A stretch of 64,000 nt of DNA from Candidatus Krumholzibacteriia bacterium (lineage in GTDB: Bacteria > Krumholzibacteriota > Krumholzibacteriia > Krumholzibacteriales > Krumholzibacteriaceae): NCBI GenBank assembly GCA_963836185.1, contig CAWIIQ010000002.1, forward strand, positions 1 to 64,000, in the 5' to 3' direction. The notes under the pieces are model-generated. The model saw nothing but the letters and a program-made list of their open reading frames with translations, was not told the origin of the DNA and did not search any database. The stretch's first letter is position 1. Each line of letters begins with the position of its first letter. Below are positions 2 through 43,784 of the stretch, piece by piece. The position numbers and the translations under genes are program-made.

Positions 2-829
2 TATATCGACAGGGATGGCAACGAACTTAACAGCCTGAATCTAAGTGAGCTTGACCCTTCACTTCCTGATGTTGATCTGCAGATGAATCTGACGAGCTGG
101 GCAACCGTGCCTGCTGTTGCCTGGGGGTCGTATTTCGATCTTCTCGGAGGTGCGAGGTATGTCTTTGCCATCTCACCGAGCTATGCCTCGGCCGACGGCT
201 CGGTTGTTTCCGAGCGAGGCGCGGGAGTAGCGGACAGTACGATCACAGAATACGAGGAAGGGACGGTCTCGGGCTGGGGCGACCTCTTCGTCTCTCCTGT
301 GCAGCTCTACTGGACTTTCGAAAAGTTCGACGTCGCCGCGATGTATGGATTCTACGCCCCCACAGGACGATATGAGACCGGCGCTGACGACAACATGGGG
401 CTCGGATTCTGGACGCACCAGTTTCAGGGCTACGGGTATTACTATCCTGTAGCCGATAAGTCGACCGCTCTTATGGTCGGCCTCACCTACGAACTGACCG
501 GCGATATCAAGGACGAGGACATGAATCCGGGCAATCGTTTCACTCTCGAGTGGGGATTCAGCCAGTATCTCACCGATCAGTTCGAGATAGGTGTTCAGGG
601 CGGCCACAACTTCCAGATAAGCGATGACAGCGGAAGCGATGTCTACTGGAATGCCGGCGTGCATGACCGCAAGAGCACGGTCGCTTTCAGCGCCGGTTTC
701 TGGCCCTTCCCCGGTTGGCTGTACATTTCCGGGAAGTATGCCTTTGACTTCGGCTGCGTCCAGCGCTTCAAGACCGATACATGGATGATCAACCTGATCC
801 TGCTGACGAATGTTCTGACGGGAGAATAA
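2..829 (+). CDS. SphA/MetA-pathway-type outer-membrane beta-barrel protein (5' truncated by window edge)
   Basis: Frame is open from position 2 (YIDRDGNELN...). Motifs GWGDLFVSP, FYAPTGRY...NMGLGFWT and alternating aromatic beta-strands are typical of this transporter family. Confidence 0.7.
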   Translation, partial: YIDRDGNELNSLNLSELDPSLPDVDLQMNLTSWATVPAVAWGSYFDLLGGARYVFAISPSYASADGSVVSERGAGVADSTITEYEEGTVSGWGDLFVSPVQLYWTFEKFDVAAMYGFYAPTGRYETGADDNMGLGFWTHQFQGYGYYYPVADKSTALMVGLTYELTGDIKDEDMNPGNRFTLEWGFSQYLTDQFEIGVQGGHNFQISDDSGSDVYWNAGVHDRKSTVAFSAGFWPFPGWLYISGKYAFDFGCVQRFKTDTWMINLILLTNVLTGE

Positions 830-4713: not shown

Positions 4714-4802
4714 TGACCTGTGGGTCCTCACAGGAGTCGAAAGGGGCCGCGCCTGGAGCATGGTTGCCCCGCCCCCGCAATTTTAAATGATGGAGTGCTG
4801 AT

Positions 4803-7256
4803 ATGAATTCATACGTATCTGTCAAGTCGCTACGCTTCTTTGTGTTCACTCTGTGTCTGGTGATCGGTATGATCGCTGGCTCTTCGGCCACAGCGCAGGG
4901 CGTGAACGGTCAGGCCGCTGATTCCGAGGCAGCATCCACTGTTACATCTCCGGACCTTGCCGACCTGATACCGATGGCCAGCGAACTGGCCGGCCGTCTG
5001 AAAGCTCTTGAAAATATTCTGACGGATCTGCCGGAAATCTCGACGCTTGAGGCGAAGTATTCTGCTATCGATTCCAGTCTCGCCTATCCAGCAGAGCGGT
5101 TTGAAAGACTCAAGGCCGCGGGGGATTTCCGTTATAACAGGATCATGGAGATAAGAGAGGAAATAAGGCGTGAGAAGAGGAAGTTCGAGGAGGCGAGCAG
5201 CCAGCTGAGCAGCGTAATCCGGATTCTGGGAGTTCAGAGGGACAAGTGGCTGACTGAGAAGGAAACATGGAATAAGTGGCAGGCCGCGATGAAGAGCGAT
5301 GCAGAGCTTGAGCAACTCGAATCGACCTTTGAAAAGGTCAACGGTACTGTCGAGACCGCTCTTGCCCTCATTCTTTCGAAGCTGAGCCCCATGCTGACCT
5401 TACAGATGAATGCCGGGAGCACCCACGAGAAGATCATCGCACTGACGGTGGAAATCGATGTAATTCTGGAGCGCAGGCAGAGCAGCGCCTTGACCGAATC
5501 TTCTCCCTTCATGCTGTCCTCCGAATTTATTGCCCAGGTTAAAACCGGTTTCTGGGATATTCATCGCCTTGGGCTCGATGAGTTATCCATTCCGGGTAGA
5601 GAATTTCTGTCAAGGCGGGGATGGCTCGTTACTATGCAGGTCCTGTTTTCGCTGTTGTTGATCGCGGCATTCTATAAGAAAAGGACGGTGCTGAAAGGTT
5701 CGGAGCGATGGCGTTTTCTCGGCGAGAGACCCTTATCGGCAGGACTCTTTTTTATCAGTATCGCAAATATGCTCATCTATGAATACGGCGAGGCTCCTGA
5801 AATATTGAAGCTGGTCAATATGACAGTCGCGGCGGTCACATTTGTCCGCCTTTCCTCAAGCCTTGTAGACAAATCCTGGAAAAGGATGGCGATCGCCGGG
5901 CTGATGGCAGTGCTGATCGTCACCTACTTTCTCTATTTCTTCGGCGTGGCCCAACCGTATTTCAGGATTTATACAGTACTGGTGTCTCTCCTCATGGTCA
6001 TACTGTGCCTGCGCTGGGTTTCGGTAAGCAGGAGAAGTGATGAATCGGTTCTTTATGCATATTTGCTTATCGTATGCTCTTTCATATTTGCCGTCGTAGT
6101 GGTCACAGAGATATGGGGAGTCGGCAAGCTGCCTATATTCCTGCTGATCTCATTTATTGAGACTGTCGCGACAGTTGTTGTCTTCATGCTTTTCCTCTAC
6201 ATCATCCGTGGAGGGATCGAGCGGCTGTTCCGCGGAGGGACGCTTCGGCAGACGTCACTGCTCAAGAATGTAGATACTGATAATGTAATCCGCAGGACGT
6301 CAAATTTTATCGATTTCGTGATATGCGGGCTTGTCCTGGTGCCCGGCATTCTGGTGATCTGGGGAGTATACCAGAGCCTGGGAGAAGCAACCGAGGAACT
6401 CCTGTCGCTGGGATTCACGCTGGGGTCAAAGCACATCAGTGTCGGACTGCTTATAACAACAACGGCCATTATATACGGGGTCTTCTTTATATCCTGGATT
6501 ATCCAAAGATCCCTGATGGAAGGCATGTTCGCCAAATTCAGGGCAGAAAGGGGTGTGCGATATTCCATAGCGCGACTGGTACACTATGTCATCGTCTTCA
6601 TTGGGTTCCTGATCGTGATATCTGTGCTGGGATTCGACATAACCAAGTTCACCATTCTGATCAGTGCGCTTGGTGTCGGCATCGGCTTCGGCCTGCAGGG
6701 CATAGTGAATAACTTCGTCAGCGGTCTCATTCTGCTCTTTGAACGCCCGGTGCGGGTCGGGGATTATATCGAGATAACCGGAAAGTGGGTTGAGATAAAG
6801 AAGATAGGTATCAGGTCTACGCTGGTCCATACGTTCGACGATGCAGATGTGATAATCCCCAACGCCGACCTTATTTCCAACCAGGTTGTCAACTGGACGC
6901 TCAGCAACCGTCAGATCAGGCTGATTGTTCCCCTGGGTGTCGCGTACGGATCGAACGTGGAACTGGTAATGGAGAGGCTGCTCGCCTGTGCCGCCGCCGT
7001 CCCGAAGATCGCTAAGTCACCTCTGCCCAGAGTGCTGTTCCGCAAGTTCGGTGAGATATCTCTCGAATTCGAGCTCTGGATCTGGATCGTGGATGCTGAC
7101 TACAGGATGTCGATAATTAGTGAAATCCACCAGGAGATAGACAGGGCCTTCAAGGAAGCGGGGATAGAGATCGCCTTCCCGCAGCTCGATCTGCATCTGC
7201 GGAGCGTCAATGACGACGCTGTACTGCGTATTGAGGAAGACATCGATCAATCATAA
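4803..7256 (+). CDS. Large MscS/MscK-like mechanosensitive channel
   Basis: Signal peptide, periplasmic coiled coil, multiple TM helices, and MscS signature ALGVGIGFGLQGIVNNFVSGLILLFERPVRVGD...IAFPQ. Confidence 0.92.
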   Translation: MNSYVSVKSLRFFVFTLCLVIGMIAGSSATAQGVNGQAADSEAASTVTSPDLADLIPMASELAGRLKALENILTDLPEISTLEAKYSAIDSSLAYPAERFERLKAAGDFRYNRIMEIREEIRREKRKFEEASSQLSSVIRILGVQRDKWLTEKETWNKWQAAMKSDAELEQLESTFEKVNGTVETALALILSKLSPMLTLQMNAGSTHEKIIALTVEIDVILERRQSSALTESSPFMLSSEFIAQVKTGFWDIHRLGLDELSIPGREFLSRRGWLVTMQVLFSLLLIAAFYKKRTVLKGSERWRFLGERPLSAGLFFISIANMLIYEYGEAPEILKLVNMTVAAVTFVRLSSSLVDKSWKRMAIAGLMAVLIVTYFLYFFGVAQPYFRIYTVLVSLLMVILCLRWVSVSRRSDESVLYAYLLIVCSFIFAVVVVTEIWGVGKLPIFLLISFIETVATVVVFMLFLYIIRGGIERLFRGGTLRQTSLLKNVDTDNVIRRTSNFIDFVICGLVLVPGILVIWGVYQSLGEATEELLSLGFTLGSKHISVGLLITTTAIIYGVFFISWIIQRSLMEGMFAKFRAERGVRYSIARLVHYVIVFIGFLIVISVLGFDITKFTILISALGVGIGFGLQGIVNNFVSGLILLFERPVRVGDYIEITGKWVEIKKIGIRSTLVHTFDDADVIIPNADLISNQVVNWTLSNRQIRLIVPLGVAYGSNVELVMERLLACAAAVPKIAKSPLPRVLFRKFGEISLEFELWIWIVDADYRMSIISEIHQEIDRAFKEAGIEIAFPQLDLHLRSVNDDAVLRIEEDIDQS

Positions 7257-7454
7257 GGGAAGATGGATGAAAAGAATCTGCAGGTGGGCGGCAGGATCGT
7301 AGAGACAAAGAAGATGGTGCTCCTGAAATGATGTTTCACGTACTGAGACGTATTCCTTGTTGATATCCCCGCTTCAATAGTGCATAAATTGCTCGGTACT
7401 TCCGAACCTCATTATTTCTCCGCATCCGCACGTTGAACTGAAGGGCCTGAGAGG

Positions 7455-8870
7455 ATGACATACAAGCACGCACTCGCGCTGTACCCATATTTCAAGGATT
7501 CCACGGCCACCATGGGTGTCTTTCCTCCCACCGGGCTCGAATACATAATCACGAACATGACCGACCTTGTCGAGAAGATCACCTTCCTCGATCTCCGGTA
7601 CGACATGGAATACCGCGACATCGACGTCCTGTCAGGATTCATCAATGAAGAGATAGACCTTATATGCATCGGGATCATGTGGGACACGCAGTTCGACGAG
7701 ATATGCGACCTGATCGCCAGCCTGCCCGCTGATGTCACCACAGTCGTGGGAGGGAGCAAGGCGACCGAGGAGGTCGAGACCCTGCTGGAGAGATGCCCCA
7801 ATATCGATTTCGTCGTCAGGGGCGAGGGAGAGGATACGATAAGGGAGATTATCAACGGTGTCCCCGCCAGGGATATCCTCGGGCTCTCGTTCCGGGAGAA
7901 CGGAGAGATGGTCCACAATGCGAACAGGGCCCTTCCCGAGATCCTCGGCACCGCATACCCGGACAGGTCGCTGCGCCGCCACGATTACCACTGGGTGCAG
8001 AACGGTGCGCGGATAGCGAGGTTCACATTCGATACCGTACTGACCTCGAGGGGCTGTCCCTACAACTGCAAGTTCTGCACGTTCAGCCTCAATCCCCTCG
8101 GACAGAAGAGGAAGTACACGGAGAGGCCCCTCGATCTTGTCATCGAGGAGCTGAAGAGCGTCACCGCCGATGTCGTCCTGTTCAGCGACGACAACTTCTT
8201 CACCAATCCGAGGCGAAGTGAAGAGCTCTGCGAGATGATCATCGATGCCGGGATTAAGAAGACATTCCTCGTCCAGACCCGGATCGAGATCTCGAAGAAT
8301 CCGAAGCTCCTGGAGCTGGCCGAGAAGGCGGGGTTCAAGGTATTCCTCATGGGCATCGAATCGCCCCATGACTGGATTCTCGAAGTGCTCAGCAAGGGAT
8401 TCAACCAGCAGCAGGTCAGGGACGCCTTCAAGGTCTTCAACAAGTTCAACTTCTACATCCACGGCTACTTCATCTACGGAAATATCGGTGAGACGGAAGA
8501 AGAGATGGTATACATCGCCCAGTTCGCCAAGGAACTGAAGCTCGATTCGATCAGCTTCCAGAAGCTGAGGGTGGAGAAGTTCTCTCCCCTGAAAGAAATT
8601 GTCGAGAACACACCGGGATATCACTGCGATTCAGTCGGCGGGCCGGTCTACTCCGACACGTACAGCCTCAGCGACCTGCGGCAGATCCGAAACAAGATAC
8701 GCAGCGAATTCTACAATCCGGCCCAGTTCCGCCAGATCCTCAAAAAGGCACATACCGCGGGGATATTCACTCCCTCCGATTTCGCGTACGCTTCACTCAA
8801 ACTGCCGAAGATCATCTACAAGCTCATCTGGAGAGAGTTCGAGAAAAAAGGTTGGGTCTCGGCAAGTTAG
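7455..8870 (+). CDS. B12-binding radical SAM protein
   Basis: PPTGLEY N-terminus, VVRGEGE, TSRGCPYNCKFC (CxxxCxxC), DDNFF, GIES. Confidence 0.9.
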   Translation: MTYKHALALYPYFKDSTATMGVFPPTGLEYIITNMTDLVEKITFLDLRYDMEYRDIDVLSGFINEEIDLICIGIMWDTQFDEICDLIASLPADVTTVVGGSKATEEVETLLERCPNIDFVVRGEGEDTIREIINGVPARDILGLSFRENGEMVHNANRALPEILGTAYPDRSLRRHDYHWVQNGARIARFTFDTVLTSRGCPYNCKFCTFSLNPLGQKRKYTERPLDLVIEELKSVTADVVLFSDDNFFTNPRRSEELCEMIIDAGIKKTFLVQTRIEISKNPKLLELAEKAGFKVFLMGIESPHDWILEVLSKGFNQQQVRDAFKVFNKFNFYIHGYFIYGNIGETEEEMVYIAQFAKELKLDSISFQKLRVEKFSPLKEIVENTPGYHCDSVGGPVYSDTYSLSDLRQIRNKIRSEFYNPAQFRQILKKAHTAGIFTPSDFAYASLKLPKIIYKLIWREFEKKGWVSAS

Positions 8871-8928
8871 CCTTTATCCTTCTGGAAGTAAGAGTGCTGT
8901 ATCTTGCCCCCCGGAAGAAGGGACAGTC

Positions 8929-10089
8929 ATGAGTAAGATTACGATCATGCTGGCGGTTCTTGGTCTTTTTCTGATTTCATGCGGGAGCGATTCGGACAGC
9001 CCGGTCGAACCGGACCCCGAAGTGTCGTTTAGCTTCGTCCATCACCAGGATATTGCCACTGAGGGGGCGGCAGACTTCGAGGCCTTCGAGATCGGTGGAC
9101 AACCATATCTCGCGGTGGCAAATGCTTCCGACGGAGGCAATCTGAATATAGATTCGAAGATATACATGTGGGACGCTGATTCCTTCGTGATCTTTCAGCT
9201 TATACCTACATCGCAGGCCTCCGACTGGGAATACTTCGAGATGGGCGGGGAGTCGTACCTTGCCGTAGCGAACCTTTATAACGGGAGCACGACCAATGTC
9301 GACTCGAAGATATACAGATGGAACGGTGCTTCTTTCCTGGAGTTCCAGTCGATCGTTACGAACGGCGCGGTCGACTGGGAGTATTTCGAGATCGGCACGG
9401 AGTCGTATCTCGCAGTAGCTAATGAGCATCAGGACTCCAACTACAACATCGATTCGAAGATATACCGCTGGGAAGTCGACTCATTCGTCGAATTCCAGTC
9501 GATCCCGACCAATGGCGCACTGGACTGGGAGTTCTTCACCGCCGGAACCGATTCATTCCTCGCTCTGGCAAACGGATTGAACGGGGGCTCGTACAATATC
9601 GACTCAAAGATATACCGATGGAACAGCAGCTCGTTCGTCGAGTTCCAGTCGATACCGACGAACAGGGCCAGGAGCTGGGAATCCTTCGAGACCGGAGGAG
9701 ATGTCTACCTGGCAGTCGCCAATTTCAGCAATGAAACCACCCAGGATATCGATTCGAAGATATATCTCTGGAACGGGATGTCGTTCACGGAGTATCAGTC
9801 GATCCCGACAAATGGTGCGACAGACTGGGAGTATTTTTCGATCGACGGGGATTCGTATCTTGCCGCCGCGAATTACTACAGCACCGCTGCGGGATCTTAT
9901 AATATCGATTCGAATATTTACCTCTGGAACGGTTCTTCCTTCCTGATTCATCAGGGGATAGCTTCGAGCGGAGCGCAGGACTGGGAACACTTCGTCATCG
10001 GCGGGGACCATTACCTCGGCTGCGCGAATCTGAGAAACGGACCGGCATTCCAGATAAACTCGATCATCCTGAAGGGGATCGCTGAATAG
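8929..10089 (+). CDS. Lipoprotein with seven EAR/EPTP (epitempin) repeats, predicted 7-bladed beta-propeller
   Basis: ATG 8929 after a purine-rich RBS; lipobox LFLISC; seven ~50-aa repeats FxxFQSIPTxGAxDWExFxIGxxxYLAVAN...NIDSKIYRW. Confidence 0.8.
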   Translation: MSKITIMLAVLGLFLISCGSDSDSPVEPDPEVSFSFVHHQDIATEGAADFEAFEIGGQPYLAVANASDGGNLNIDSKIYMWDADSFVIFQLIPTSQASDWEYFEMGGESYLAVANLYNGSTTNVDSKIYRWNGASFLEFQSIVTNGAVDWEYFEIGTESYLAVANEHQDSNYNIDSKIYRWEVDSFVEFQSIPTNGALDWEFFTAGTDSFLALANGLNGGSYNIDSKIYRWNSSSFVEFQSIPTNRARSWESFETGGDVYLAVANFSNETTQDIDSKIYLWNGMSFTEYQSIPTNGATDWEYFSIDGDSYLAAANYYSTAAGSYNIDSNIYLWNGSSFLIHQGIASSGAQDWEHFVIGGDHYLGCANLRNGPAFQINSIILKGIAE

Positions 10090-27768: not shown

Positions 27769-30736
27769 TCAGTTTTTGCTGATCGCCGCTGCGCTGTTAC
27801 GGCCGTCCATCATCACCGTGAGGGGGGTCTCGGTCCTTACATGGATGAAATGATCCGGTCCGCTCGATCTCAGGGAGGCCGGAAAGGTACTCCCAGTCTA
27901 CGAAACTGTCCTTCGATGCGTGCGGGACGGAGAAGTAGCCTACCCCTTTCGAGGTGACGTTATGGAAGAAGTGTGAGCCGAGCGAGGCGTCAAAATGGAA
28001 GTCCTCGAGTTCCACTTCGGCGATTACCTGCGCGTTTGATATGTCCGACCACCTGACGGGGATCCCGAGGAACCTGTCCCTTGTCCCCCATCGGCCGGGA
28101 CCGAGGAGGATGTATTTCTCGCCGCGTTCTCTCATCTTCGCGTTGAGTCTTTCGAGCTCGGCCTTCATCTCGACAGTCCTGCTCCTGTCGAACTTCCCGA
28201 TGTCTGCGTAGATGATGTGATGGAGATCGCGGATGATACCGTTGCCCATCGCGTGCTCGGAATAAAGGATCATATCTTCCCGGTCGATTCTGCCGAGGTC
28301 GAGCCTGTAATCCTTCATGTCCCCGAGCAGGGGTTTGATCTGCAGGATGTAGAAGTTGCTCCTGCCGTCCGCTCCCTTGTCGAGGTCGACGGCGAATTCG
28401 ATCTGGACCGGCATTCCCATCGAACTGGTGATGATCTCGAGTACCGCTTCGAGGATCTGGGAGAGTGGGAAATGTCCATATTTCAGGACGGAGGCGAAAT
28501 TCACGACACGGGGGCCTGTTTGATGCGATCCCGATTTCAGGCTCCCCGAGTTCATGTCCCAGACCGAGATCAGGTGTTCAGCGGTCCCGTCACTTTCCGC
28601 CTCGGAGATATCGAGCGTTGTGATCGTGGCGTCGCTTCCCGACAGCAGATCGAAATCAGCGTTATCGAGGTCCACCGCGTAGAAGCGCGTCTGGGACTCC
28701 TTGAGCATATCCTCCTGTGAGATGAAATCCATCTTCGGGTATTTCGGGCAGAATCGCCACGACCGTTCACCTTCGACGACATATTTTCCCATTCCCAGCC
28801 CGAGAAGGGCGATGCCGTCCTCCGGCTTGAGATATGAGACGGGGTAGTAGTTGTAAGACTGGGCGAGGCCCGAGATATGGGGGTAGAACCTGCCGCCGTG
28901 CTTCGTTCCGGCAACGCCCTGCAGCAGGACAGCCATCTTCTCCTCGCCGATCTTGTAGTTGACCGCTTCGAGGTAGGAGCGTGCGTCGCTCGAGTATACG
29001 GAGGCGTAGACGAGCTTGACAGCTTCCTCGAGATGTCTTTGTCGTACGCGGGGGTCCGGGTCGTTATTCGGAAGAAAGTATGTCTCGTAGATGCCCGAGA
29101 ATGGCTGGGATTTCGAATCCTCAAACAGGCTCGACGACCTTACCGCGAGCGGATAATCGGCATGCCTGAGATACAGGGCGAGCTTCTCCCTCAACTCGTC
29201 GGACAGTCCGGCTTCGAGAAAGGCCCCGGTGACGTCATCCGGCTCTTCGCCTCCGGTCAGCTGATCGACGAACTCGTTGTCGTCCATGAACCGGTCGTAT
29301 TCATCGGTTCCGATGATAGCGGTGCGGGGGATGATGACATTTACGTCCGGGTGGATCGTGAAAAGCTCCCGGTTCTCGATCATCATATTGAGGAAGACCA
29401 TCCCCCGGCCCTTGCCGCCGACCGACCCTCCTGAGAGCTGGAAGAGGTTCTCCTCCCCGGATACGACCGATTCGTCGAAATGGATGACCTTGCCCCTCGT
29501 CTTCTGCCGGTGGACGATGTCGCAGATCTCGATAAGGTGCCTTCTCAGGTCGTCGTAAGATGGGAAATCGGATATCTTCAGCGGTTGGATGAACTTGGCG
29601 ATCTGGATCTCGCCCCTTGCCATCAGCCAGCTCGAGAAATGGTTTCGATCGGAGTGATAGATCAGGGATTCGTCGGGGACGGTATGGAGGAGGTCCCTGA
29701 ATTCGGCCATCTTCGCCGCCTTCGCGATCTTTGTCCCCGACCTGTCGCGGAAGACGAAATCCCCGAATCCGAGGTTGTCGAATATAAAGGATGTCAGGTC
29801 GTGCGCGAGGTTATCGGAATTCTTGTCAAGAAAGGAAGAGCCCAGCCCGTCGGCCAGGGAGGCGTTCTCCGGATTTGACGACTGGAGCAGGACCGGCAGG
29901 GAGTCGATCTCTTTCTTGAACTTTTTGACCAGCTTTATCCCGGCCCGTTCGTCGACCTTTCCCTTCCGCGGGAATTTCACGTCGGAGATGACGCAGAGGA
30001 GGTAGTCGCGGTACCTGTCGAATATCTCGACAGCCTCTTCGTAGGTCGCCGCTATCAGCACCTTCGGCCTCGTCCGCATCCGCAGGAGCTTTTTCATCTC
30101 ATCGAGGTTCTCGTCGGCGATCAGTTTCTGGGTCTGTTTCATTATCTGCGTGTTGAGGACCGGGAGGTAGCGTGAGTAATAGTGTATCGAGTCCTCGACG
30201 AGGAGGATCACCCGCACCAGCCCGATCCGCGTGTCGTTGACGACATTTATCTTGTCCTCGATATATTTGATCATAGCGAGCAGGACCTTCGCATCCCCGT
30301 TCCATGTGAAGATCCTGTCGAAGAGGCGGAGGCGTTCCCCCTCGTTTTCGATGAGGGCGAGGTCCTTGTCGTCGCTCAGCAGGAGCAGCACGGGGATATC
30401 TGCCTCCTTTTCCCTGATCTTCGTGCAGAGCTCGAAGGGGCTCATCTCATCGATTCGCATCGTGAGGATCACCATGTCGAACCGGCGCTTGTCGAGCATC
30501 GCGAGAGCTTCCTCTCCGAAGGCGACGCTCGTCACGCGCGGAGCGGTCGAGAGGTTGAGCTGGTAGTACTCTCCGAAGATCAGCTCGGTGAGCTTGCCCT
30601 CCTGCTCGAGGATGAAGGCGTCGTAGATCGTGGCGACGAGCAGGATCTCCCTGACCCTGAACTGCATCAGGTCGTGGTAGATCTCGTCGTCAGACTTGTA
30701 GCTCGTAAAGAGCCTGGAGATCATCTCCTTGTACAT
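27769..30736 (-). CDS. PEP-synthase/PPDK N-terminal (ATP-grasp) domain protein with N-terminal receiver-like domains; frameshift near 27855
   Basis: ILLVEDS and CVISD receiver-like segments, GGKGRG, AVRSSSLFED...FSGIYET, IEFAVD, GPGRWG, SHFFHN. Removing one G gives the expected tail HFIHVRTETPLTVMMDGR with a stop at 27769. Confidence 0.8.
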
Positions 30737-34325: not shown

Positions 34326-34483
34326 GCCGCACAGGAACCTCCGGAAAGTGCTGGATACTCCCGGATGATCGTTGAATATTCGGACAACGGACTGTTCTTG
34401 TCTGTTTCAACGAGGTGGCGGGATATGCTACAATCGCCGCCACTGAATCCGGACTTCAGCACTTCAGACGGAGGTACCTCTTA

Positions 34484-36120
34484 ATGAGAACCTTGCTCAT
34501 CACGGCCCTGCTGCTCGTCGCGGCCCTTACTCTCGCGGCCCCGCCGGCGGGGGCCTGCACCAACTTCCTTATCACAAAGGGCGCTTCGACCGACGGCTCG
34601 ACGATGATCACGTACGCCGCCGACGCGCATGTGCTCTACGGCGAGCTGTACTACTGGCCGGCGCGCGATCATCTGCCCGGCACGATGCTTGACATATACG
34701 AGTGGGACACCGGGAAGTATCTCGGGAAGATTCCGCAGGTCGAACATACATATTCGGTCATCGGCCTGATGAACGAGCACCAGGTGACGATCGGCGAGAC
34801 AACCTGGGGCGGACGCAAGGAGCTTCGCGACAGCACGGCGATCGTCGACTACGGCAGCCTGATGTTCCTTGCCCTGCAGAGGTCGAAGACGGCCCGCGAG
34901 GCGATAGAGGTCATGACGAGCCTCGTCGCCGAACATGGATACGCCAGCTCCGGCGAGTCGTTCTCGATAGCCGACCCGAACGAGGTCTGGTTCATGGACC
35001 TTATCGGCAAGACGCGCCTCGAATCCCGGCGCGGTCTGGGTCGCCCGCCGCGTTCCCGACGGATATATCTCGGCCCACGCCAACCAGGCACGCATCAGGC
35101 AGTTTCCCCGCAAGGACAAGAACTGTCTCTACGCCCCTGACGTCGTCGATTTTGCCCGTGAGATGGGATTCTACGATGGCTCGGACAAGGACTTCAGCTT
35201 TGCCGATGCCTACGCGCCCCTCGATTACGGCTCTCTTCGATTCTGCGAGGCGCGCGTCTACGCGATGTTCAACCGCGCCGCTCCCTCGCTCGAGATGTCG
35301 ATGGATTACGTGAAGGGCGTCGAGGGCTCCGAGCCGATGCCCCTCTGGATCAAGCCCGACAGGAAGCTCTCGGTGCATGACATCATGGAGTTCATGCGCG
35401 ACCATTTCGAGGGTACAGATTTCGACATGACTAAAGACATCGGTTCCGGCCCTTACGAGTGCCCCTATCGCTGGCGTCCGCTGACCTGGAAGGTCGACGA
35501 CGTCCAGTACGTCAACGAGCGCGCCACCTCGACCCAGCAGACCGGATTCTCGTTCGTCTCTCAGTGCCGCTCGTGGCTTCCCGATCCGATAGGCGGGGTG
35601 CACTGGTTCGGCGTCGACGATACGTACAGCACCGTCTACAACCCGATCTACTGCGGAAGCAGGAGGGTTCCCGAAGTCGTACGCGGTCGGTAACGGCGAC
35701 TTCCATGACTTCACGTGGGACTCGGCGTTCTGGGTCTTCAACTGGGTCTCGAACTACGCTTATTCCCGCTACAGCGAGATGATCGTCGATATCAGGCTTC
35801 TGCAGAGCGAGCTCGAGGGGACCTATCTCGCCGACCAGAGGAGGATAGACGAGGCGGCAGCGGCGCTTTACGAGCAGTCGCCCAATCTCGCGATCGAGTA
35901 TGTTACCGAATACTCTACCCGTACGGCCGATTCCACAGTCGACCGCTGGCGCAGGCTCGGTACCGACCTGCTGGTCAAGTACATGGACGGCAATCTCAAG
36001 GACGAGCTGGGTAACGTCAAGCATATCGGCTATCCCGAGTCGTGGTACAGGAAGGTCTCGGAATCGACCGGCGACCATCTCAAGTATAAGGCGCTCGAGG
36101 GTGAGGAGGGCGGCCACTAG
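34484..36120 (+). CDS. C69-family (Ntn-hydrolase) exported dipeptidase; frameshifts near 35010 and 35675
   Basis: GGAGG RBS; signal peptide followed by nucleophile C-TNFLIT; MNEHQVTIGETT; SGESFSIADPNEVW. Shifted frames supply GAVWVARRVPDGYISAHANQARI and SAFWVFNWVSN. Confidence 0.85.
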
Positions 36121-38505: not shown

Positions 38506-38521
38506 AGGCACGCTTTTTGCG
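38506..38521 (+). promoter_or_regulatory. Putative sigma54 (-24/-12) promoter of the pilin operon
   Basis: AGGCACGCTTTTTGCG matches TGGCACG-N4-TTGC with exact GG-N10-GC spacing, about 40 nt before the first pilin ATG. Confidence 0.65.
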
Positions 38522-38558: not shown

Positions 38559-39032
38559 ATGAATAAGATTAGAAGAAATATCAGAGGATTCACTCTCACA
38601 GAGCTGATGATCGCCATAACGATCCTCGGGCTCATCGCGGTGCTGTCAGTTCCTAACTACCAGCGGTTCATGATGGGGTGGAGGCTCAACGGAGAGACGC
38701 AGCAGCTTGCCAGCGCTCTCAGGACGGCCCGTTCATCGGCTGTTATGAAGAACATCGATGTCGTTTTCACCTTCGATCCTGATGCCAACACGTACTCATG
38801 GTTCGAGGATATGAACAGGAACGGCAATCTGGACAACGGCGAATACGAGAGTGCAGAATTCGAGCTCACAGATACGGTGGAGATCGCCGCACATACTCTC
38901 TCGAGCACTGTCCTGACCTTCGGAAGCAAGGGCAATACGAGAGAGAGCGGTTCGATAACGTTGCGAAATCCGCTGAACAATGTAAGAAGCGTAAGGATCT
39001 TCGGCGGGACCGGGAACGTCACCGTCGACTGA
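38559..39032 (+). CDS. FimT/FimU (GspH-like) minor pilin
   Basis: Class III signal RRNIRG|FTLTELMIAITILG; LASALRTARSSAV; TFGSKG...GSITL. Confidence 0.85.
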   Translation: MNKIRRNIRGFTLTELMIAITILGLIAVLSVPNYQRFMMGWRLNGETQQLASALRTARSSAVMKNIDVVFTFDPDANTYSWFEDMNRNGNLDNGEYESAEFELTDTVEIAAHTLSSTVLTFGSKGNTRESGSITLRNPLNNVRSVRIFGGTGNVTVD

Positions 39033-39049
39033 CAAGGGAAGTAAGAACG

Positions 39050-39433
39050 ATGTTGAAGTCAGAAAAAGGCATAGGGCTCATAGAGATCATCATCGCGATG
39101 CTTATATTCGCCATCGGCATAACGGCCGCGATAAGGACGCTGCCGGTCAGCAATACAGCGACGACCCGCTCCAGGAATCTGACGATGTCGACGAATCTTG
39201 CCCAGCAGAAGATCGAGGAGCTTATGGGCACGCCGTTCACCAGCACTGATCTGAATGCGGGAGCCCACGATGATCCGGATAATCCAATAGAACGTATTTA
39301 CACGCGTACCTGGAACGTCACGGACAACGACCCTGTTTCCGACATGAAGACGGTCACCGTAACAGTGACCTACCTGTCGGGCAACAGCGATAACTCGGTG
39401 ACTCTTTCCACGTACCTGACATCCAGACGGTAG
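39050..39433 (+). CDS. PilV-like minor pilin
   Basis: KSEKG|IGLIEIIIAMLIFAIG; LAQQKIEEL; YTRTWNV...KTVTVTVTY. Confidence 0.8.
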   Translation: MLKSEKGIGLIEIIIAMLIFAIGITAAIRTLPVSNTATTRSRNLTMSTNLAQQKIEELMGTPFTSTDLNAGAHDDPDNPIERIYTRTWNVTDNDPVSDMKTVTVTVTYLSGNSDNSVTLSTYLTSRR

Positions 39434-39440
39434 GTTTGCC

Positions 39441-42413
39441 ATGAGAATCTTCAGAAAGAACAGAGATGCAGGGTTCACGCTGATCGAGATCATGATGAGT
39501 ATGATCGTAATGGGATTCGTCCTGATCTCGGTGGCGGGCATATTCGCCCTCTACCAGAAAGGGTCGGCCAAGACACGTGACTACGCCGAGGCACAGCAGA
39601 ACTCAAGGGCTGCGCTCGACTGCATCACTGATCATCTCAGGCAGGCTGGATCGCAGACTGATTATTTCAGGGGGCAGAGGCCTATAGTCCATGCCGGCCC
39701 CTACCAGGTCGCTTTGAACGCCGATATAGACAACGGAAGGACCATCGACGGCCTGGCGCCGTTGGTGGCGATCAATCCGGCTACGGCGCCCAATACGGTC
39801 CCTTCCGGCGGTACTACTATGTACGCGCCCACCTCGATGTTCGACTCGGAGGCGGAGACGATCGTCTTCAGCCTCGACTCGAACGCCGACGGGGTCATAA
39901 ATGCCGGCGACCGTGGTGACGATATCGAGGAGGACGGCGCGAACGACAACCTCTTCGTGATGAAGAAATACACGTACGGATTCGACGGCGCCCGCAACGA
40001 GGTCCGTGACGCGAATATCGCGATAGTCCGCGGGCCGAACCTGCAGGCGACATGGACGATACCTCAGCCGCTCTTCCAGTACTGGTACGATCATGACGAT
40101 AACCCCGCCACCGATAACCGGCTCTGGGGTGACTCCAACGGAAGCGGACAGCTCGAGGACTCGGAATCGCTCGCCGTTACGGCGATGCCGGACAACCTCC
40201 TTGCCCAGATACGCAGGATCAAGGTCACGACGATCTCCGAGTCGGACCGGTACGACAAGAACTACGAGACTAACGGCGGATACCTCGACGTCACGATGAC
40301 TTCAGAGGTCTATGTGAGGAACTCGCAGATCGCGAGCTCGATAATCCGTGGAAAGGTATTCCATGACGCGGACAAGGACGGCAAGATCGACAACGGCGAA
40401 TCGGGTATCCCGAACGTCAAGGTCCGTCTCGCCGGCCAGAACCGCGACGTGATAACCGATAACTTCGGGGTGTTCTACTTCCCGCTGCCGGCTGGAACGT
40501 ATTCGATCCAGGAAGTCGATCCTCCCGGCTACACGTCTACGACGAACAACCTCGTATCGATCACGCTCGCTTCGGGACAGTCACAGGTCGTCAACTTCGG
40601 CGATATCGCTACGGCGCCGTTCGGCGTGATAAACGGGTACATCTTCGAGGACGAGGACAAGGACGGAGTAAAGGGGCTTGGAGAGAAGGGCCTTCCCGGC
40701 GTGCTGATGTCGCTCGATGACGGGTCACAGGTCATGTCGGACAATATGGGTTACTACGCTTTTACCGCCATGCAGGGCGAATATGTCATCGTAGAGACCG
40801 ACCCGGTCGGCTACTCGTCGACGACTTCCAACTCCGCGACCGCGTCTATCGTCGATCAGGACGATACAGTGACGGTGAATTTCGGTGACTTTGCCGGGCC
40901 GACTTCCGGCGTTCTCGAGGGATACGTCTTTATCGATGAGAACGATGACGGGATCAGGAACTCGATGGAAGAGGGTATCCCCAACGTCACCATCACCGTC
41001 TCGAACTACGACTCGACACTGACGAACGCGAGCGGGTACTACCTGTTCAACCTCGAGCCGAACACGTACTCGGTGACCGAGAGGGATCCGACAGGATATA
41101 CATCGACTACTGTGAATACTTATTCAGACATCGTCATCACTGCCGATACTACCGTTGCGCGCAACTTCGGCGATGTGCTCGAAAACCGCCAGGACTTCGT
41201 GGAGATCCACATCTCGAACACCGAGAGGGTGCTGTCCGTGACGACAGGCAACCTCTCCGAGGATAATAACCACGACCAGGATATCGTCCTCGGGACGGCC
41301 CTGGGCGGCGGGATCGGGAACATGCTTGTCTTCTACAATGAATGGGAGAACTCCACGACGCCGGTCCACGAGCTCTTCAATTCTGATCCCGCATACAGGC
41401 GCGACGCGGGGTACAACATCAACGCGATGGTGAGGCTCGACCTCTCCGGCGACGGGGTCCCCGACATCGTGACAGGGCTCGACACAGATACCGAACGGAA
41501 CATCCAGGTCTGGATGACAGAGGATGAGGGTGTCCTCACTACCTCGCCAGTCTACTCTTTCACTTCCGACGGCTCGAATGAAGCGATGGACCTGAAGCTC
41601 GTCGATCTCGACGACGATGGCCGCGAGGATCTCGTCGTGGGGCTCAAGTCGCCCTTCGGATCGGTCGGAGGCTTCCAGGTATTCAGGGGGATGGGTAACG
41701 GAGACTTCATGCCGATGCAGTATATAATTCAGGCGCTGAGTGAGACCGAGGTGCCCCTTGGCGAGATATGGGCCGTGGAAACGGGCGACATGGATGGAGA
41801 CGGAGACCAGGATATCGTCGTGGGTTCGCACACCTCGCCGTACTATGGATACATCGACATATATGAGAACGTCGGTTACGCCTCAGGTGATTTCAAGTGG
41901 GCCCAGCGCTACCAGGCATGGGGCGCGGTCAACGACCTGAAGGTCCTCGATATGATGGAGGACGACTCAGGCGATGATGACATCGTAGCGGCCCTCACGA
42001 TGGGAAATAACTACGGGCACATCATGCTCTGGCACAACGAGGGCGGGCTGATGGGAATCCCCGATACGACGGGTTATTCCTTCGGCTCCGAGGTGCAGGC
42101 TACGCTGCCCGACGACTGGCTGTACGCCGATGGCGAAGCGCTCTGCCTCGCTGTTCTTCATCTCAATAACGACGTGTTCCCCGACCTGGCGTACGGGACG
42201 AGGGATTCTGATGTGTATACCGGCAATGTCTACGTACTTGCCGCTTACGGAACGCTTCCGGCGTACGGCGACCAGATCAACCAGACCGTGTCTGGAGAGG
42301 TCGTATCACTCGCCGTCGCTGATTTCAACAAGGATGTCAGACCGGACATAGTCGTGGGTACCAGGTCCACGGCTACCCAGGGAAGGCTTGTAGCCTATTT
42401 CGGCAGGGACTAA
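39441..42413 (+). CDS. Giant PilW-like minor pilin (990 aa) with three SdrD-B-like repeats and a C-terminal FG-GAP beta-propeller
   Basis: RDAG|FTLIEIMMSM; AQQNSRAALD...LRQAG; three GxVFxDxDxDG..D..ExGxPxVxxxL repeats from ~40341; seven DxxxDGxxDIVxG-type motifs from ~41240. Confidence 0.85.
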   Translation: MRIFRKNRDAGFTLIEIMMSMIVMGFVLISVAGIFALYQKGSAKTRDYAEAQQNSRAALDCITDHLRQAGSQTDYFRGQRPIVHAGPYQVALNADIDNGRTIDGLAPLVAINPATAPNTVPSGGTTMYAPTSMFDSEAETIVFSLDSNADGVINAGDRGDDIEEDGANDNLFVMKKYTYGFDGARNEVRDANIAIVRGPNLQATWTIPQPLFQYWYDHDDNPATDNRLWGDSNGSGQLEDSESLAVTAMPDNLLAQIRRIKVTTISESDRYDKNYETNGGYLDVTMTSEVYVRNSQIASSIIRGKVFHDADKDGKIDNGESGIPNVKVRLAGQNRDVITDNFGVFYFPLPAGTYSIQEVDPPGYTSTTNNLVSITLASGQSQVVNFGDIATAPFGVINGYIFEDEDKDGVKGLGEKGLPGVLMSLDDGSQVMSDNMGYYAFTAMQGEYVIVETDPVGYSSTTSNSATASIVDQDDTVTVNFGDFAGPTSGVLEGYVFIDENDDGIRNSMEEGIPNVTITVSNYDSTLTNASGYYLFNLEPNTYSVTERDPTGYTSTTVNTYSDIVITADTTVARNFGDVLENRQDFVEIHISNTERVLSVTTGNLSEDNNHDQDIVLGTALGGGIGNMLVFYNEWENSTTPVHELFNSDPAYRRDAGYNINAMVRLDLSGDGVPDIVTGLDTDTERNIQVWMTEDEGVLTTSPVYSFTSDGSNEAMDLKLVDLDDDGREDLVVGLKSPFGSVGGFQVFRGMGNGDFMPMQYIIQALSETEVPLGEIWAVETGDMDGDGDQDIVVGSHTSPYYGYIDIYENVGYASGDFKWAQRYQAWGAVNDLKVLDMMEDDSGDDDIVAALTMGNNYGHIMLWHNEGGLMGIPDTTGYSFGSEVQATLPDDWLYADGEALCLAVLHLNNDVFPDLAYGTRDSDVYTGNVYVLAAYGTLPAYGDQINQTVSGEVVSLAVADFNKDVRPDIVVGTRSTATQGRLVAYFGRD

Positions 42414-42451
42414 TCATCCCGCCTGGAGGGACAGGAAAGGACTGAATAGAA

Positions 42452-43714
42452 ATGAACGGCAAGATCAACGGAAAGCTGAAGGCGGAAAGCGGGAACGTCC
42501 TCGTGGTGACGCTGCTCGTCCTGTTCGCCATATCGGTGATAGGAGCGACGCTGGCGATGGTCTCCTCGATGGACCTGAAGATATCGGGTAACCAGAGAAC
42601 GACCACCCAGTCGCTGTTCATCGCCGAGGCGGGGCTGAACGAGGCGATCCACAGGCTGTCGCTGCCCAACCCGACAGATGTCGCCATCGGCGGCTGGACG
42701 GGAAACGTCGCGATCGGCGACACCGAGCCGTACGATCCGAACTGGAAGACGTACGTGTACCTTACGGCGCCGGGATCGGCTCCGACGCTCGGCGGGAGTA
42801 ATATCTCGACCGGGACACTCCAGGATCCTAACGGAGATTATCTCGGGTACAGCCAGACGACTGGCACCGATGGTGTCCTGGTCGTCGAGCACAAGTGGGA
42901 GGACCTCGATGGTGACGGGGCGAGGGACGTAAACGAGATCGTCCGGTACGATCCGATGAAGATCCCCCCGGAGAACTTTTCGTCGGGATTCCCCGTTGAA
43001 CTGATAACCGTGACTGGTGAATCGGCCAACGGTGAAAGGGTCATCCAGGCAGAGGTGACGAAGAGGACGATGATAGCCCGGACGCTCGGCGCGCTGTATG
43101 TCGACAAAGCGGTCAAGCTGACCGGTAACTGCGCCTTCTGCGGACACAACCATGACCTGGCCACTCCGCCGGGCACCCAGCCAAATGCATGCAAGGCATG
43201 GCATCTGCCTACGGGAAACCTGCCGGGAGTGACTAGTACCGGTGACGTCGTCAAGACGCAGGGATCGGCCGATATTCTCGGCGATCCACAGCCTATCGAC
43301 GATGACGCGGGCAACCCGTTTTATTCGCTTGCCGAGGTGCTCGGGCTCTCCGATTCCGAGGTGGCCAGCATCCTCGCCAAGGCGGATAACACCTCGATGG
43401 TAGATCCGCTCAACGGCATCACCTACATACAGGGTGACGCCAAGATCACGAGCAACCTGACCGGCAAGGGCCTGATCTATGTCACGGGCGACCTGCAGGC
43501 GGCGGGAAGCTTCCATTTCCAGGGCCTGATCTACGTCGAGGGGGATGTCCACTTTACAGGTACGCCGTGGGTCCTCGGCTCGATGATCGTGCGCGGGACC
43601 TCCGACTTCAACTTCTCCTCCGGTAACGCGGGCGTACTCTACAGCAAGGACGCTATCTCACAGGCGCTGAGCGGCATGATGCCGTGCATAGTACTCTCGT
43701 GGAGGGAGATGTAG
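42452..43714 (+). CDS. PilX-like minor pilin with extended C-terminal beta-solenoid
   Basis: ESG|NVLVVTLLVL without Glu5, as in PilX; SLFIAEAGLNEA; repeated GLIYVxGD. Confidence 0.8.
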   Translation: MNGKINGKLKAESGNVLVVTLLVLFAISVIGATLAMVSSMDLKISGNQRTTTQSLFIAEAGLNEAIHRLSLPNPTDVAIGGWTGNVAIGDTEPYDPNWKTYVYLTAPGSAPTLGGSNISTGTLQDPNGDYLGYSQTTGTDGVLVVEHKWEDLDGDGARDVNEIVRYDPMKIPPENFSSGFPVELITVTGESANGERVIQAEVTKRTMIARTLGALYVDKAVKLTGNCAFCGHNHDLATPPGTQPNACKAWHLPTGNLPGVTSTGDVVKTQGSADILGDPQPIDDDAGNPFYSLAEVLGLSDSEVASILAKADNTSMVDPLNGITYIQGDAKITSNLTGKGLIYVTGDLQAAGSFHFQGLIYVEGDVHFTGTPWVLGSMIVRGTSDFNFSSGNAGVLYSKDAISQALSGMMPCIVLSWREM

Positions 43715-43754: not shown

Positions 43755-43784
43755 AGCCCGCTGCCGGATATCCGGCAGCGGGCT
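43755..43784. terminator. Perfect 30-bp palindrome, bidirectional terminator between convergent operons
   Basis: AGCCCGCTGCCGGATATCCGGCAGCGGGCT followed by TTCTT on the plus strand. Confidence 0.75.

Follow-up and report, generated by a model that had tools for sequence, protein, structure and literature searches.

A core minor-pilin operon of Krumholzibacteriota predicted to prime and cap a type IVa pilus without PilY1, with two enlarged pilins

How type IV pili (T4P) acquire a tip adhesin and how their assembly is licensed is an active question, and the 2026 beta-strand-addition papers address both points. Among the closest described systems are those of PilY1/PilC with FimU-PilVWX, from P. 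aeruginosa, Neisseria, Kingella and M. xanthus, which share with the locus analysed here a large calcium-loop propeller and an H-I-J-K priming complex. The tail of PilC/PilY proteins follows a simple rule, with a conserved Trp, either one charged residue or two, and a hydrophobic one after them at the very C-terminal end (PMC13711793). According to PMC13533445, the PilY1 tail completes the sheet of PilK/PilX in trans; in GspK, CpaL, ComZ-type proteins and V. cholerae PilK the sheet is completed in cis, and a large insertion lies ahead of the donor strand. A solenoid PilX from cyanobacteria has been proposed (PMC13759059) to assume the capping role of PilY1. Modular type IV pilins have also been described, such as Streptococcus sanguinis PilB with a vWA module and PilC with a lectin module (Raynaud et al. 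2021, PMC8179133), and Dataset S1 of that work includes the domain strings IPR012902-IPR033764-IPR013517 (3 proteins) and IPR012902-IPR033764 x3-IPR013517 (1 protein). This architecture is only counted there, with no organism, operon position or function given. We take IPR033764 and IPR013517 in these strings to be SdrD-B and FG-GAP, respectively. Modular pilins and the solenoid PilX are already published, and the domain architecture that we report was already in this 2021 supplementary table. Literature searches for fusions of PilY1, PilW or minor pilins found no PilW-propeller fusion described in titles and abstracts, those combining a minor pilin with FG-GAP gave no match, and those for Krumholzibacteriota and type IV pili found nothing related.

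Within the window (the whole stretch of 64,000 nt that was analysed, from an uncultured member of Krumholzibacteriota represented by MAGs only), ORFs and their translations define four co-directional genes between positions 38559 and 43714, coding for a GspH/FimT-like protein, a GspI/PilV-like protein, a pilin of 990 aa and a PilX_N protein of 420 aa. They are separated by gaps of 17, 7 and 38 nt, in that order, and are flanked in this genome by unrelated metabolic genes. The locus comprises the following elements; the Pfam scores quoted for all four proteins, here and below, exceed the curated cut-offs.

38507..38520, + strand: putative operon promoter, a sigma-54-type -24/-12 element (GGCACG-N4-TTGC), 52 nt upstream of the fimT ATG
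38559..39032, + strand: fimT-like gene for a GspH/FimT-like minor pilin of 157 aa, with class III signal NIRG/FTLTE (Pfam GspH 44.4 bits, N_methyl 32.4 bits)
39050..39433, + strand: pilV-like gene for a GspI/PilV-like minor pilin of 127 aa, with signal SEKG/IGLIE (Pfam N_methyl 23.7 bits)
39441..42413, + strand: gene for the J-position (PilW-type) modular pilin of 990 aa, assigned from Pfam, homologues and an AF2 model
42452..43714, + strand: gene for the K-position PilX/ComZ-type subunit of 420 aa, without Glu+5 (Pfam PilX_N 41.4 bits)
43755..43784, both strands: bidirectional intrinsic-terminator-like hairpin of 13 pairs, 11 of them G-C, between convergent genes

The preliminary description had claimed a FimT-PilV-PilW-PilX order closed by a terminator, with neither pilY1 nor pilE in the operon, and the ORFs, the Pfam matches and the hairpin bear this out. 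With NCBIfam, every match of the FimT-like protein was under the cut-off, as were those of the PilV-like protein to PilV (30.3 bits) and GspI (26 bits). The -24/-12 pattern occurs 19 times genome-wide, both strands counted, and the element upstream of fimT is kept in 8 of the 18 orthologous loci examined; additionally, a gene for a PilR-type sigma-54 activator adjoins pilA. The gene order is the same as in the T2SS GspH-I-J-K pseudopilus tip (3CI0, 5VTM) and in Tad CpaL/TadG, with which the operon would also share the logic of a terminal strand acting in cis.

The genome encodes one T4aP machine and one minor-pilin set. It has one secretin, one PilC platform protein, one prepilin peptidase, PilB plus two PilT-like ATPases and one PilX_N protein, as well as a cluster with the order pilB-pilT-pilC-pilS-pilR-pilA...pilMNOPQ, and a motif scan found only the minor-pilin set at 38559-43714. 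A genome search for pilBCQ, as had been recommended with the initial reading, thus returned the genes of a T4aP (PilB, PilC and the single secretin).

The product of the third gene can be divided into three parts.

39441..40322, + strand: pilin module, aa 1-294, with signal peptide, alpha1 helix (14-67) and globular domain (82-291) in the AF2 model
40338..41180, + strand: SdrD-B-type beta-sandwich domains, three in number (aa 300-580), with a D-x-D/N-x-D/N-G...E loop in each (Pfam SdrD_B)
41193..42410, + strand: FG-GAP beta-propeller, aa 585-990, with conserved acidic loops

This protein has the leader, hydrophobic +1 residue, Glu+5 and long alpha1 helix of type IV pilins. Its class III signal, RDAG/FTLIEIMM, can be read from the sequence with G-1, F+1 and E+5; residues G11, F12 and E16 are conserved in homologues, and N_methyl is matched over residues 7-31 with 25.5 bits (cut-off 21.2). 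In the AF2 model (mean pLDDT 86.6) the helix and the pilin domain are followed by a low-confidence linker (295-298), by beta-sandwiches at 300-390, 394-485 and 490-580, and by a propeller at 585-989. The class III signal and pilin domain originally attributed to the protein were therefore confirmed by the sequence, Pfam and the model. It also agrees with the definition of modular pilins in PMC8179133, having an N-terminal pilin module, a short linker and non-pilus domains that are recognised by Pfam and separate in the model, and it is likewise a predicted tip adhesin. In the present operon, the modular pilin is the J-position subunit in the core set of a diderm T4aP, its partner is a solenoid PilX, and at one locus it and a PilY1 cassette alternate.

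Its original designation as PilW held by operon position and homology, but not for the curated PilW and GspJ models. Its gene stands third in an H-I-J-K operon, and hhalign shows homology between its pilin module and the canonical ca. 200-aa PilW from PilY1-type operons (probability 98.9%, E 3e-17, residues 7-100 against 13-107). The Pfam PilW family did not match it at E 0.01, NCBIfam GspJ was not reached, and the matches to PRK10557, ComGF and TIGR02599 were all under the cut-off; the canonical PilW proteins of the sister PilY1 operons show the same under-cut-off pattern in curated families. A profile of the N-terminal 298 residues matched sequences of solved structures only over alpha1-helix stretches (best E 0.0067), and searches with the whole model using Foldseek and VIA gave lists filled by propellers, in which the matches listed correspond to stalk and propeller only, with no PilY1 chain among those listed. 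The C-terminus, ...LVAYFGRD, lacks a PilC/PilY-type tail.

The placement of the 990-aa protein in a pilus rests on prediction, and with NCBIfam it weakly matches HpsC and Verru_Chthon cassette protein C, both under the cut-off. These observations would be compatible with an unassembled protein whose pilin-like N-terminus acts only as a cleavable membrane anchor, or for the export, of a calcium-binding protein in the periplasm or on the cell surface, or with a component of a short pseudopilus like that of a T2SS or one for polysaccharide secretion. We consider this highly improbable, because E+5 and a full 54-residue alpha1 helix are retained, homology links the pilin module to canonical PilW, the gene has the J position in an H-I-J-K operon that is conserved and that in the sister genus lies directly behind pilQ, and only one secretin and one platform protein occur in the genome.

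Beyond the pilin module, SdrD_B was matched in 3 stretches with 111.4 bits (cut-off 29.7), and the stalk is structurally similar to B. anthracis TIE (6fwv) and SdrD (10ps) in Foldseek. In its EF-hand-like acidic loops, D309, D404 and D499 are each kept in 57 of 57 sequences, and E320, E415 and E510 in 56, 54 and 55 of the 57, respectively; calcium binding is predicted from these motifs. The C-terminal part matched FG-GAP_3 (56.7 bits, 3 stretches) and FG-GAP (39 bits), is modeled with the seven-bladed fold of integrin alpha-type propellers, and has acidic loops that are nearly invariant among homologues. Profile matches, model and loop conservation thus support the three SdrD-B-like repeats with predicted calcium loops and the seven FG-GAP blades noted at the outset. 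The label of an MSCRAMM-like stalk is valid for the B-like domains and their loops but not for full MSCRAMM family models: the NCBIfam model MSCRAMM_SdrD has a cut-off of 2500 bits and reached 67.9, and another model with a cut-off of 1700 reached 62.7, the match covering the B-like repeats only. The 990-aa pilin has the same domain folds and calcium-loop motifs as the B domains of staphylococcal MSCRAMM SdrD and the FG-GAP propellers of integrin alpha type; unlike staphylococcal MSCRAMMs, it has no A domain, SD repeats or LPXTG anchor, so that the resemblance is one of building blocks only. These results suggest that the 990-aa pilin is likely a built-in adhesin, its tip location, adhesion and calcium binding being predicted from models and motifs.

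Full-length homologues of ca. 990 aa form more than 110 protein clusters with 35-85% identity, all from Krumholzibacteriota-type MAGs. The fusion was found in 44 of 151 genomes of the phylum; these genomes are related, and neither this count nor those for PilY1 below are independent. The order FimT-PilV-PilW-PilX is kept in every class-1 locus with sufficient flank (L008-L027, L040), and the frame of the big-pilin gene is broken at only two examined loci, L014 and L015 (the same place as L041). This indicates that the fusion is genuine and not an assembly artefact, in agreement with the preliminary description. Among the best 150 representatives matching the pilin module, 91 have at least 780 aa, and paralogous giant pilins bear differing C-terminal modules: choice-of-anchor J, Big_1/Invasin_D3, Big_2 and BNR.

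A profile search for PilY1 (PF05567), which proteins outside this family would escape, gave no match in this genome (92.5% complete), and Pfam gave none in any of the four operon proteins. The null result for the genome is uninformative alone, because 14 control genomes also gave 0 matches. The phylum-wide run served as positive control: the same search found PF05567 in 56 of 151 genomes, showing that it works in this phylum, and in 0 of 32 genomes of the family. By this search, the absence of a cognate PilY1 elsewhere in the genome, on which the initial reading depended, is borne out. PilY1 and the fusion occur together in only 3 of the 44 fusion genomes (G029, G042 and G057), so exclusion is not absolute; in G057 both kinds are present as complete sets, with 11 kb between them.

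In the sister genus g26, 5 genomes have only the fusion, 5 only PilY1 and 2 neither. The locus of g26 genome G019 is arranged as pilQ-fimT-pilV-pilW-pilX (153 aa)-pilY1 (744 aa)-two ORFs-rsmD, and that of G099 as pilQ-fimT-pilV-pilW fusion-pilX (420 aa)-rsmD, with flanking genes that are 56-86% identical. The fusion cassette and the canonical PilY1 cassette therefore alternate at one pilQ-rsmD locus in different species of g26. Comparison with the sister PilY1 gave an hhalign probability of 5.5% for the fusion-family PilW, with no detectable propeller homology, and of 0.2% for the PilX family, with nothing in common beyond a short tail. This lack of homology between the FG-GAP and PilY1 propellers, together with a likeness of PilX to PilY1 limited to the short tail, points to replacement by analogy. 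Two other proposals were dropped: that the 990-aa PilW or PilX is a remnant of a PilY1 fusion, given these same values and a likeness confined to the short tail and to loop motifs, and a synteny with the canonical operon of G114 through a shared flavin-reductase neighbour, which was not confirmed at E 1e-10; the pilQ-rsmD synteny in g26 held.

The interchange of the two cassettes and the near invariance of the acidic loops would also suit a propeller that acts chiefly inside the machine, regulating assembly, retraction or the gating of the secretin in dependence on calcium rather than serving as a ligand-binding adhesin; for the PilY1 propeller, a role in speeding or stabilising formation of the tip complex, or in gating the secretin, is proposed in PMC13533445. 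This seems unlikely to us: a three-domain stalk that keeps propeller and pilin module apart is more in line with display than with docking on the tip complex, the varied C-terminal modules of the paralogous giant pilins fit variable adhesins and not a conserved machine part, and the propeller has no homology to that of PilY1. A built-in adhesin thus remains our preferred reading for the 990-aa pilin.

The 420-aa PilX, whose unusual nature was overlooked in the preliminary description, contains two further elements.

43064..43651, + strand: ice-binding-protein-like (DUF3494-type) beta-solenoid of PilX, aa 205-400, an insertion
43685..43711, + strand: terminal beta-strand of PilX, aa 412-420, CIVLSWREM, with a PilC/PilY-type motif (W-charged-charged-hydrophobic)

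The protein matches the PilX_N profile, lacks Glu+5 and has a pilin-like fold, as expected for the PilX/PilK/GspK type. Its model is ComZ/GspK-like, with the solenoid placed as an insert after the pilin sheet and ahead of the last strand (412-419), as in the solenoid PilX/ComZ class; GspK and XcpX align to it over 43..420 and 51..420, ranges that extend to residue 420. The protein ends in W417-R-E-M420, in accordance with the PilC/PilY tail rule. LSW[RKS]E plus one or two more residues forms the C-terminus of 37 of 39 aligned PilX homologues, and SW[RKQ]E occurs within the last 20 residues of only 4 of the 6812 ORFs of the genome. In the sister PilY1 proteins, [RQ]SW is found near the C-terminus in 10 of 10 examined, and RSW[QKR]E is a motif of their C-terminal regions. 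Among the homologues aligned, identity within the PilX family is 64-90%, except at two distant loci, where it is 40 and 42%; the solenoid PilX is found together with the 990-aa PilW and is the more conserved of the two. The tail motif of PilY1/PilC systems thus occurs in the Krumholzibacteriota operon too, and sister species have the canonical form at the same locus. Unlike in those systems, no separate PilY1 was found, the tail is on PilX itself, and the propeller is of FG-GAP type, lies covalently in PilW and is not detectably homologous to PF05567. As PilX carries a PilY1-type tail, it would supply the licensing strand of PilY1 in cis. We consider this enlarged, solenoid-bearing and putatively self-complementing protein of PilK/ComZ type the likelier heir of the priming role of PilY1.

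The solenoid also recalls ComZ of Thermus thermophilus, and the pilus could be a Thermus-like one for DNA uptake (competence), with PilX as DNA receptor and the large pilin as an accessory. This is rather improbable, since the same type of solenoid PilX is used by motility pili of cyanobacteria, according to PMC13759059, and the fold therefore does not single out DNA uptake; besides, the one T4aP found has just this minor-pilin set and includes PilT. The passages of PMC6561018 and PMC13759059 consulted, on ComZ and the cyanobacterial solenoid PilX, describe no giant J-position pilin.

A mechanism can be proposed for a pilus primed and capped by this operon. PilX, folding like ComZ/GspK in the model, would complete its own pilin beta-sheet in cis with its last strand, CIVLSWREM, and this strand would give the licensing signal that PilY1 canonically gives in trans, while the solenoid would serve as a cap for the tip. 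PilX would be joined by PilV and by PilW, the latter with its pilin module; the connection of this complex to the PilA fibre would be made by FimT. Prediction of a complex of FimT(10-157), PilV(7-127) and PilW(11-298) with PilX(1-420) as partner gave a score of 0.76, and a control with chain 3 replaced 0.59, values that we do not weigh on either side of the question of binding. At the C-terminus of PilW, three SdrD-B sandwiches, predicted to be stiffened by calcium, would form a stalk and hold the calcium-loop FG-GAP propeller off the tip as a ligand-binding adhesin. How such a protein passes the secretin had been raised as a puzzle; the problem is no greater than for the PilY1 of ca. 900 aa of sister species, and the flexible linker at 295-298 would let stalk and propeller go first through the PilQ channel, as the similar-sized PilY1 must in relatives.

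Overall, we consider it probable that the operon, the single core minor-pilin operon of this genome and with GspH/I/J/K-type order, primes and caps one type IVa pilus without PilY1, the two jobs of PilY1 likely being split between two enlarged pilins. The tip architecture first proposed, with the adhesin propeller built into a core minor pilin, is supported in that the fusion is real and no PF05567 was found; it is amended in that PilX is also enlarged and modular pilins were already known, and adhesion and tip location stay predictions. Tentatively, and with somewhat less confidence than doubt, Krumholzibacteriota, and probably other uncultured lineages too, may possess a large family of giant pilins for the J position, 800-2200 aa long and so far undescribed, built of one PilW-type module of ca. 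300 aa and interchangeable adhesin modules, which would work with a self-licensing solenoid PilX bearing the tail of PilY1. The giant pilins and this PilX would together make up a full substitute for the PilY1 tip that could be swapped horizontally, priming and adhesion being placed on two separate pilins.

The locus offers a natural experiment, as close relatives carry either PilY1 or a PilY1-free cassette at the same place. If our reading is true, priming and adhesion can be separated and transferred from one subunit to another, and there would be a wide unstudied reservoir of giant modular pilins, which could explain surface attachment in uncultured phyla of sediment and soil.

The minor-pilin operon consists of four genes on the + strand (window 38559–43714), with intergenic gaps of 17, 7 and 38 nt according to the ORFs and their translations. 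In order, and with the adjoining elements, these are:

38507–38520, sigma-54-type element GGCAC-N5-TTGC followed by GTTAT, putative promoter 52 nt 5′ of fimT
First gene, + strand, GspH/FimT-like pilin of 157 aa, with Pfam GspH and N_methyl
Second gene, + strand, PilV/GspI-like pilin of 127 aa, with Pfam N_methyl and below-cut-off PilV/GspI matches
Third gene, + strand, PilW-type fusion of 990 aa, with N_methyl (residues 7–31), SdrD_B (111.4 bits, three stretches) and repeats of FG-GAP/FG-GAP_3
Fourth gene, + strand, PilX-like protein of 420 aa, with Pfam PilX_N
43755–43784, hairpin of 13 pairs that ends the operon, facing a convergent gene

The flanking genes are unrelated to pili: upstream lie a PhzF-like gene and one for a flavin reductase, both shared with loci of the same and of other genera, and downstream lie DUF5698/DUF2179 and a gene of the enolase superfamily. 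ORFs, Pfam matches, hairpin and flanks bear out the preliminary description of the operon on every testable point. Also in the window, two adjacent + strand ORFs (34415–35140 and 35163–35693) match positions 72–167 and 216–362 of the Peptidase_C69 profile and may represent a dipeptidase gene that has been split or frameshifted, and a 979-aa protein (27797–30736, − strand) shows an unusual combination of a response-regulator receiver and a PEP-utilising (PPDK_N) domain.

The 990-aa protein, previously described as a pilin-adhesin fusion, is genuine and old. Its length is covered to 98–100% by over 110 protein clusters (976–998 aa, 35–85% identity), their named sources being MAGs of Candidatus Krumholzibacteriota, Krumholzibacteria or Latescibacterota, and the fusion occurs in 44 of the 151 genomes sampled from the phylum, across six families (E < 1e-100). 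The order FimT-PilV-PilW-PilX is kept in all loci of this class whose flanks are long enough; exceptions are the two most distant ones, L043 with FimT last and L035, which is cut. Two loci carry the gene in two frames, broken at differing places, near residues 380–445 in L014 (9998–12906) and near residues 361–372 in L015 (9968–12951, the same site as L041 4801–7784), which may reflect sequencing error or decay to a pseudogene. The AlphaFold2 (AF2) model (mean pLDDT 86.6) comprises an alpha1 helix of 54 residues, a globular pilin domain (82–291), a four-residue low-confidence linker, three beta-sandwiches and a propeller (585–989), and the acidic loops of sandwiches and propeller are retained in 54–57 of 57 aligned homologues. 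Past the helix, the pilin module is homologous to the ca. 200-aa PilW of PilY1 operons (hhalign 98.9%, E 3e-17, residues 7–100).

A profile of this module (ca. 300 aa), searched against 1.84 billion representatives, gave 898 matches at E < 1e-10. Among the best 150 of these, 91 were at least 780 aa long, 25 measured 1400–2300 aa, and 125 had a G-F-T-L-x-E signal within the first 45 residues. Pfam scanning of 40 long proteins, picked to avoid the ca. 990-aa class, identified SdrD_B alone in eight, SdrD_B with FG-GAP in four, Big_1/Invasin_D3 in five, Big_2 in three and a BNR/sortilin propeller in one, with nothing known in the remainder. In proteins P0243–P0389 the module heads giants that reach 2192 aa, their C-terminal parts being either unknown or of the Big_1/Invasin_D3, Big_2 or BNR type. 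A second class from the same phylum, a PilW of 1051–1065 aa ending in a choice-of-anchor J domain, has its own paralogous FimT-PilV-PilW-PilX operon, carried by at least 19 of the 151 genomes (e.g., L039, G065:C1:4030001-4046000, 4314–10043, − strand; also L034 and L042), sometimes beside the propeller class. Its PilX (449–472 aa) contains PilX_N and DUF4900, and I[AS]W[SNQ]EI occurs as a motif close to its end. The query used did not detect the second-class operon in the genome from which the window comes.

The own genome (3.5 Mb, 6 contigs, 92.5% complete) encodes a single machine, with one secretin, one PilC, one prepilin peptidase, PilB and two PilT-like ATPases; its cluster on contig 1 reads pilB-pilT-pilC-pilS-pilR-pilA...pilM-N-O-(P)-Q, and the window's PilX is the sole PilX_N protein. 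Scanned for pilin motifs, the genome yielded the PilA of this cluster, the pilins of the window and, on contig 3, a single orphan GspG/PilA-like ORF. The latter (C3:260641-261180; L006:6620-7180) has the signal GFTLLE, matches GspG/PilA below cut-off and lies among peptidase genes; it could represent a PilE-like or an accessory pilin.

The PilY1 profile PF05567 had no match in this 92.5% complete genome, a result that alone says little because 14 control genomes likewise had none. The same search was positive in 56 of the 151 phylum genomes (families f6, 38/61; f7, 10/17; f8, 7/9; f9, 1/9) and negative in the own family f1 (0/32) and in f2 (0/6), f3 (0/1), f4 (0/10) and f5 (0/5). PilY1 and the fusion co-occur only in G029, G042 and G057, the last with a full canonical set (PilV, PilW, 160-aa PilX, 918-aa PilY1) 11 kb from a full fusion set; the sampled genomes being kin, these counts describe a pattern rather than a statistic.

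Within genus g26 of family f7, five genomes have only the fusion (G095, G099, G129, G133, G144), five only PilY1 (G012, G019, G084, G109, G114) and two neither. In G019, pilQ is followed by fimT, pilV, pilW, pilX (153 aa), pilY1 (744 aa), two ORFs and an rsmD-like methyltransferase gene; in G099, by fimT, pilV, the pilW fusion, pilX (420 aa) and the same rsmD-like gene. The flanks are collinear over ca. 7 kb on the pilQ side and ca. 5 kb on the rsmD side, with 56–86% protein identity, and recur on partial contigs of G095 and G133. The fusion cassette is thus physically tied to the T4aP machine genes, and these shared flanks show that the two cassettes are alternatives. The two ORFs after pilY1 in G019 (L052 on G019:C1, 6448–7867, − strand), a 133-aa one without family and a 308-aa one containing a He_PIG Ig domain, are missing from the fusion cassette at that locus. 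In the own genome the rsmD-like gene directly follows pilQ, and the minor-pilin operon lies elsewhere, in the window.

The preliminary description listed PilX but overlooked that this partner, too, is unusual; it measures 420–431 aa in fusion-type operons versus 153–164 aa in PilY1-type operons of the phylum. Its AF2 model (pLDDT 79) shows a helix (13–70), a pilin-like sheet, a beta-helical domain (215–396), a short helix and a last strand (412–419). The protein ends in CIVLSWREM, and 37 of 39 aligned homologues terminate in LSW[RKS]E followed by one or two more residues; SW[RKQ]E occurs within the last 20 residues of only four of 6812 own-genome ORFs (≥100 aa). All ten PilY1 proteins examined from sister genomes have [RQ]SW, mostly RSWQEN[FY], at or near the C-terminus, a tail absent from the short canonical PilX proteins of the sister genomes examined; beyond the tail, PilX and PilY1 have no detectable homology. 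The last ca. 10 residues of PilC/PilY1 complete the PilK/PilX beta-sheet in trans, whereas completion is in cis in GspK, CpaL and PilY1-free T4aP PilK, frequently with a large insert ahead of the donor strand (Ellison et al., PMC13533445). [quoted passage not shown] All three descriptions apply to the PilX of the window.

A solenoid PilX and strand addition in cis have both been published already, and modular pilins are established (>1,200 proteins, 264 architectures), Dataset S1 of that study including this exact domain string, uncommented, for 3 + 1 proteins (PMC8179133). Our literature search, mostly outside subscription journals and preprint supplements, found no description of a core J-position pilin with a propeller, of such a pilin paired with a solenoid PilX that has a PilY-type tail, or of within-genus alternation of such a cassette with a PilY1 cassette, three points that appear to be new.

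The sigma-54-type element 5′ of fimT is retained in 8 of 18 orthologous loci, and a second GGCAC-N5-TTGC plus GTTAT lies upstream of pilM (pilMNOPQ) at C1:2001707 on the − strand; the own genome has 19 matches to the pattern, against roughly 13 expected by a rough estimate. Together with the PilS/PilR pair adjoining pilA, which includes a PilR-type activator, this putative promoter suggests that the operon is co-regulated with the machine.

Overall, the feature is real and conserved, and the initial reading is supported and extended; we infer the following functions. PilX would license itself through cis strand addition and cap the fibre; it would be joined by PilV and the PilW module, and FimT would connect the complex to PilA. 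How the fusion passes the secretin had been raised as a question; it is not special to the fusion, since the PilY1 of sister species (744–983 aa, with a propeller of similar size) must pass too. From general knowledge of T4aP tips, the flexible linker would let the module go first through the secretin, and the stalk and propeller of PilW would be displayed as a calcium-dependent adhesin.
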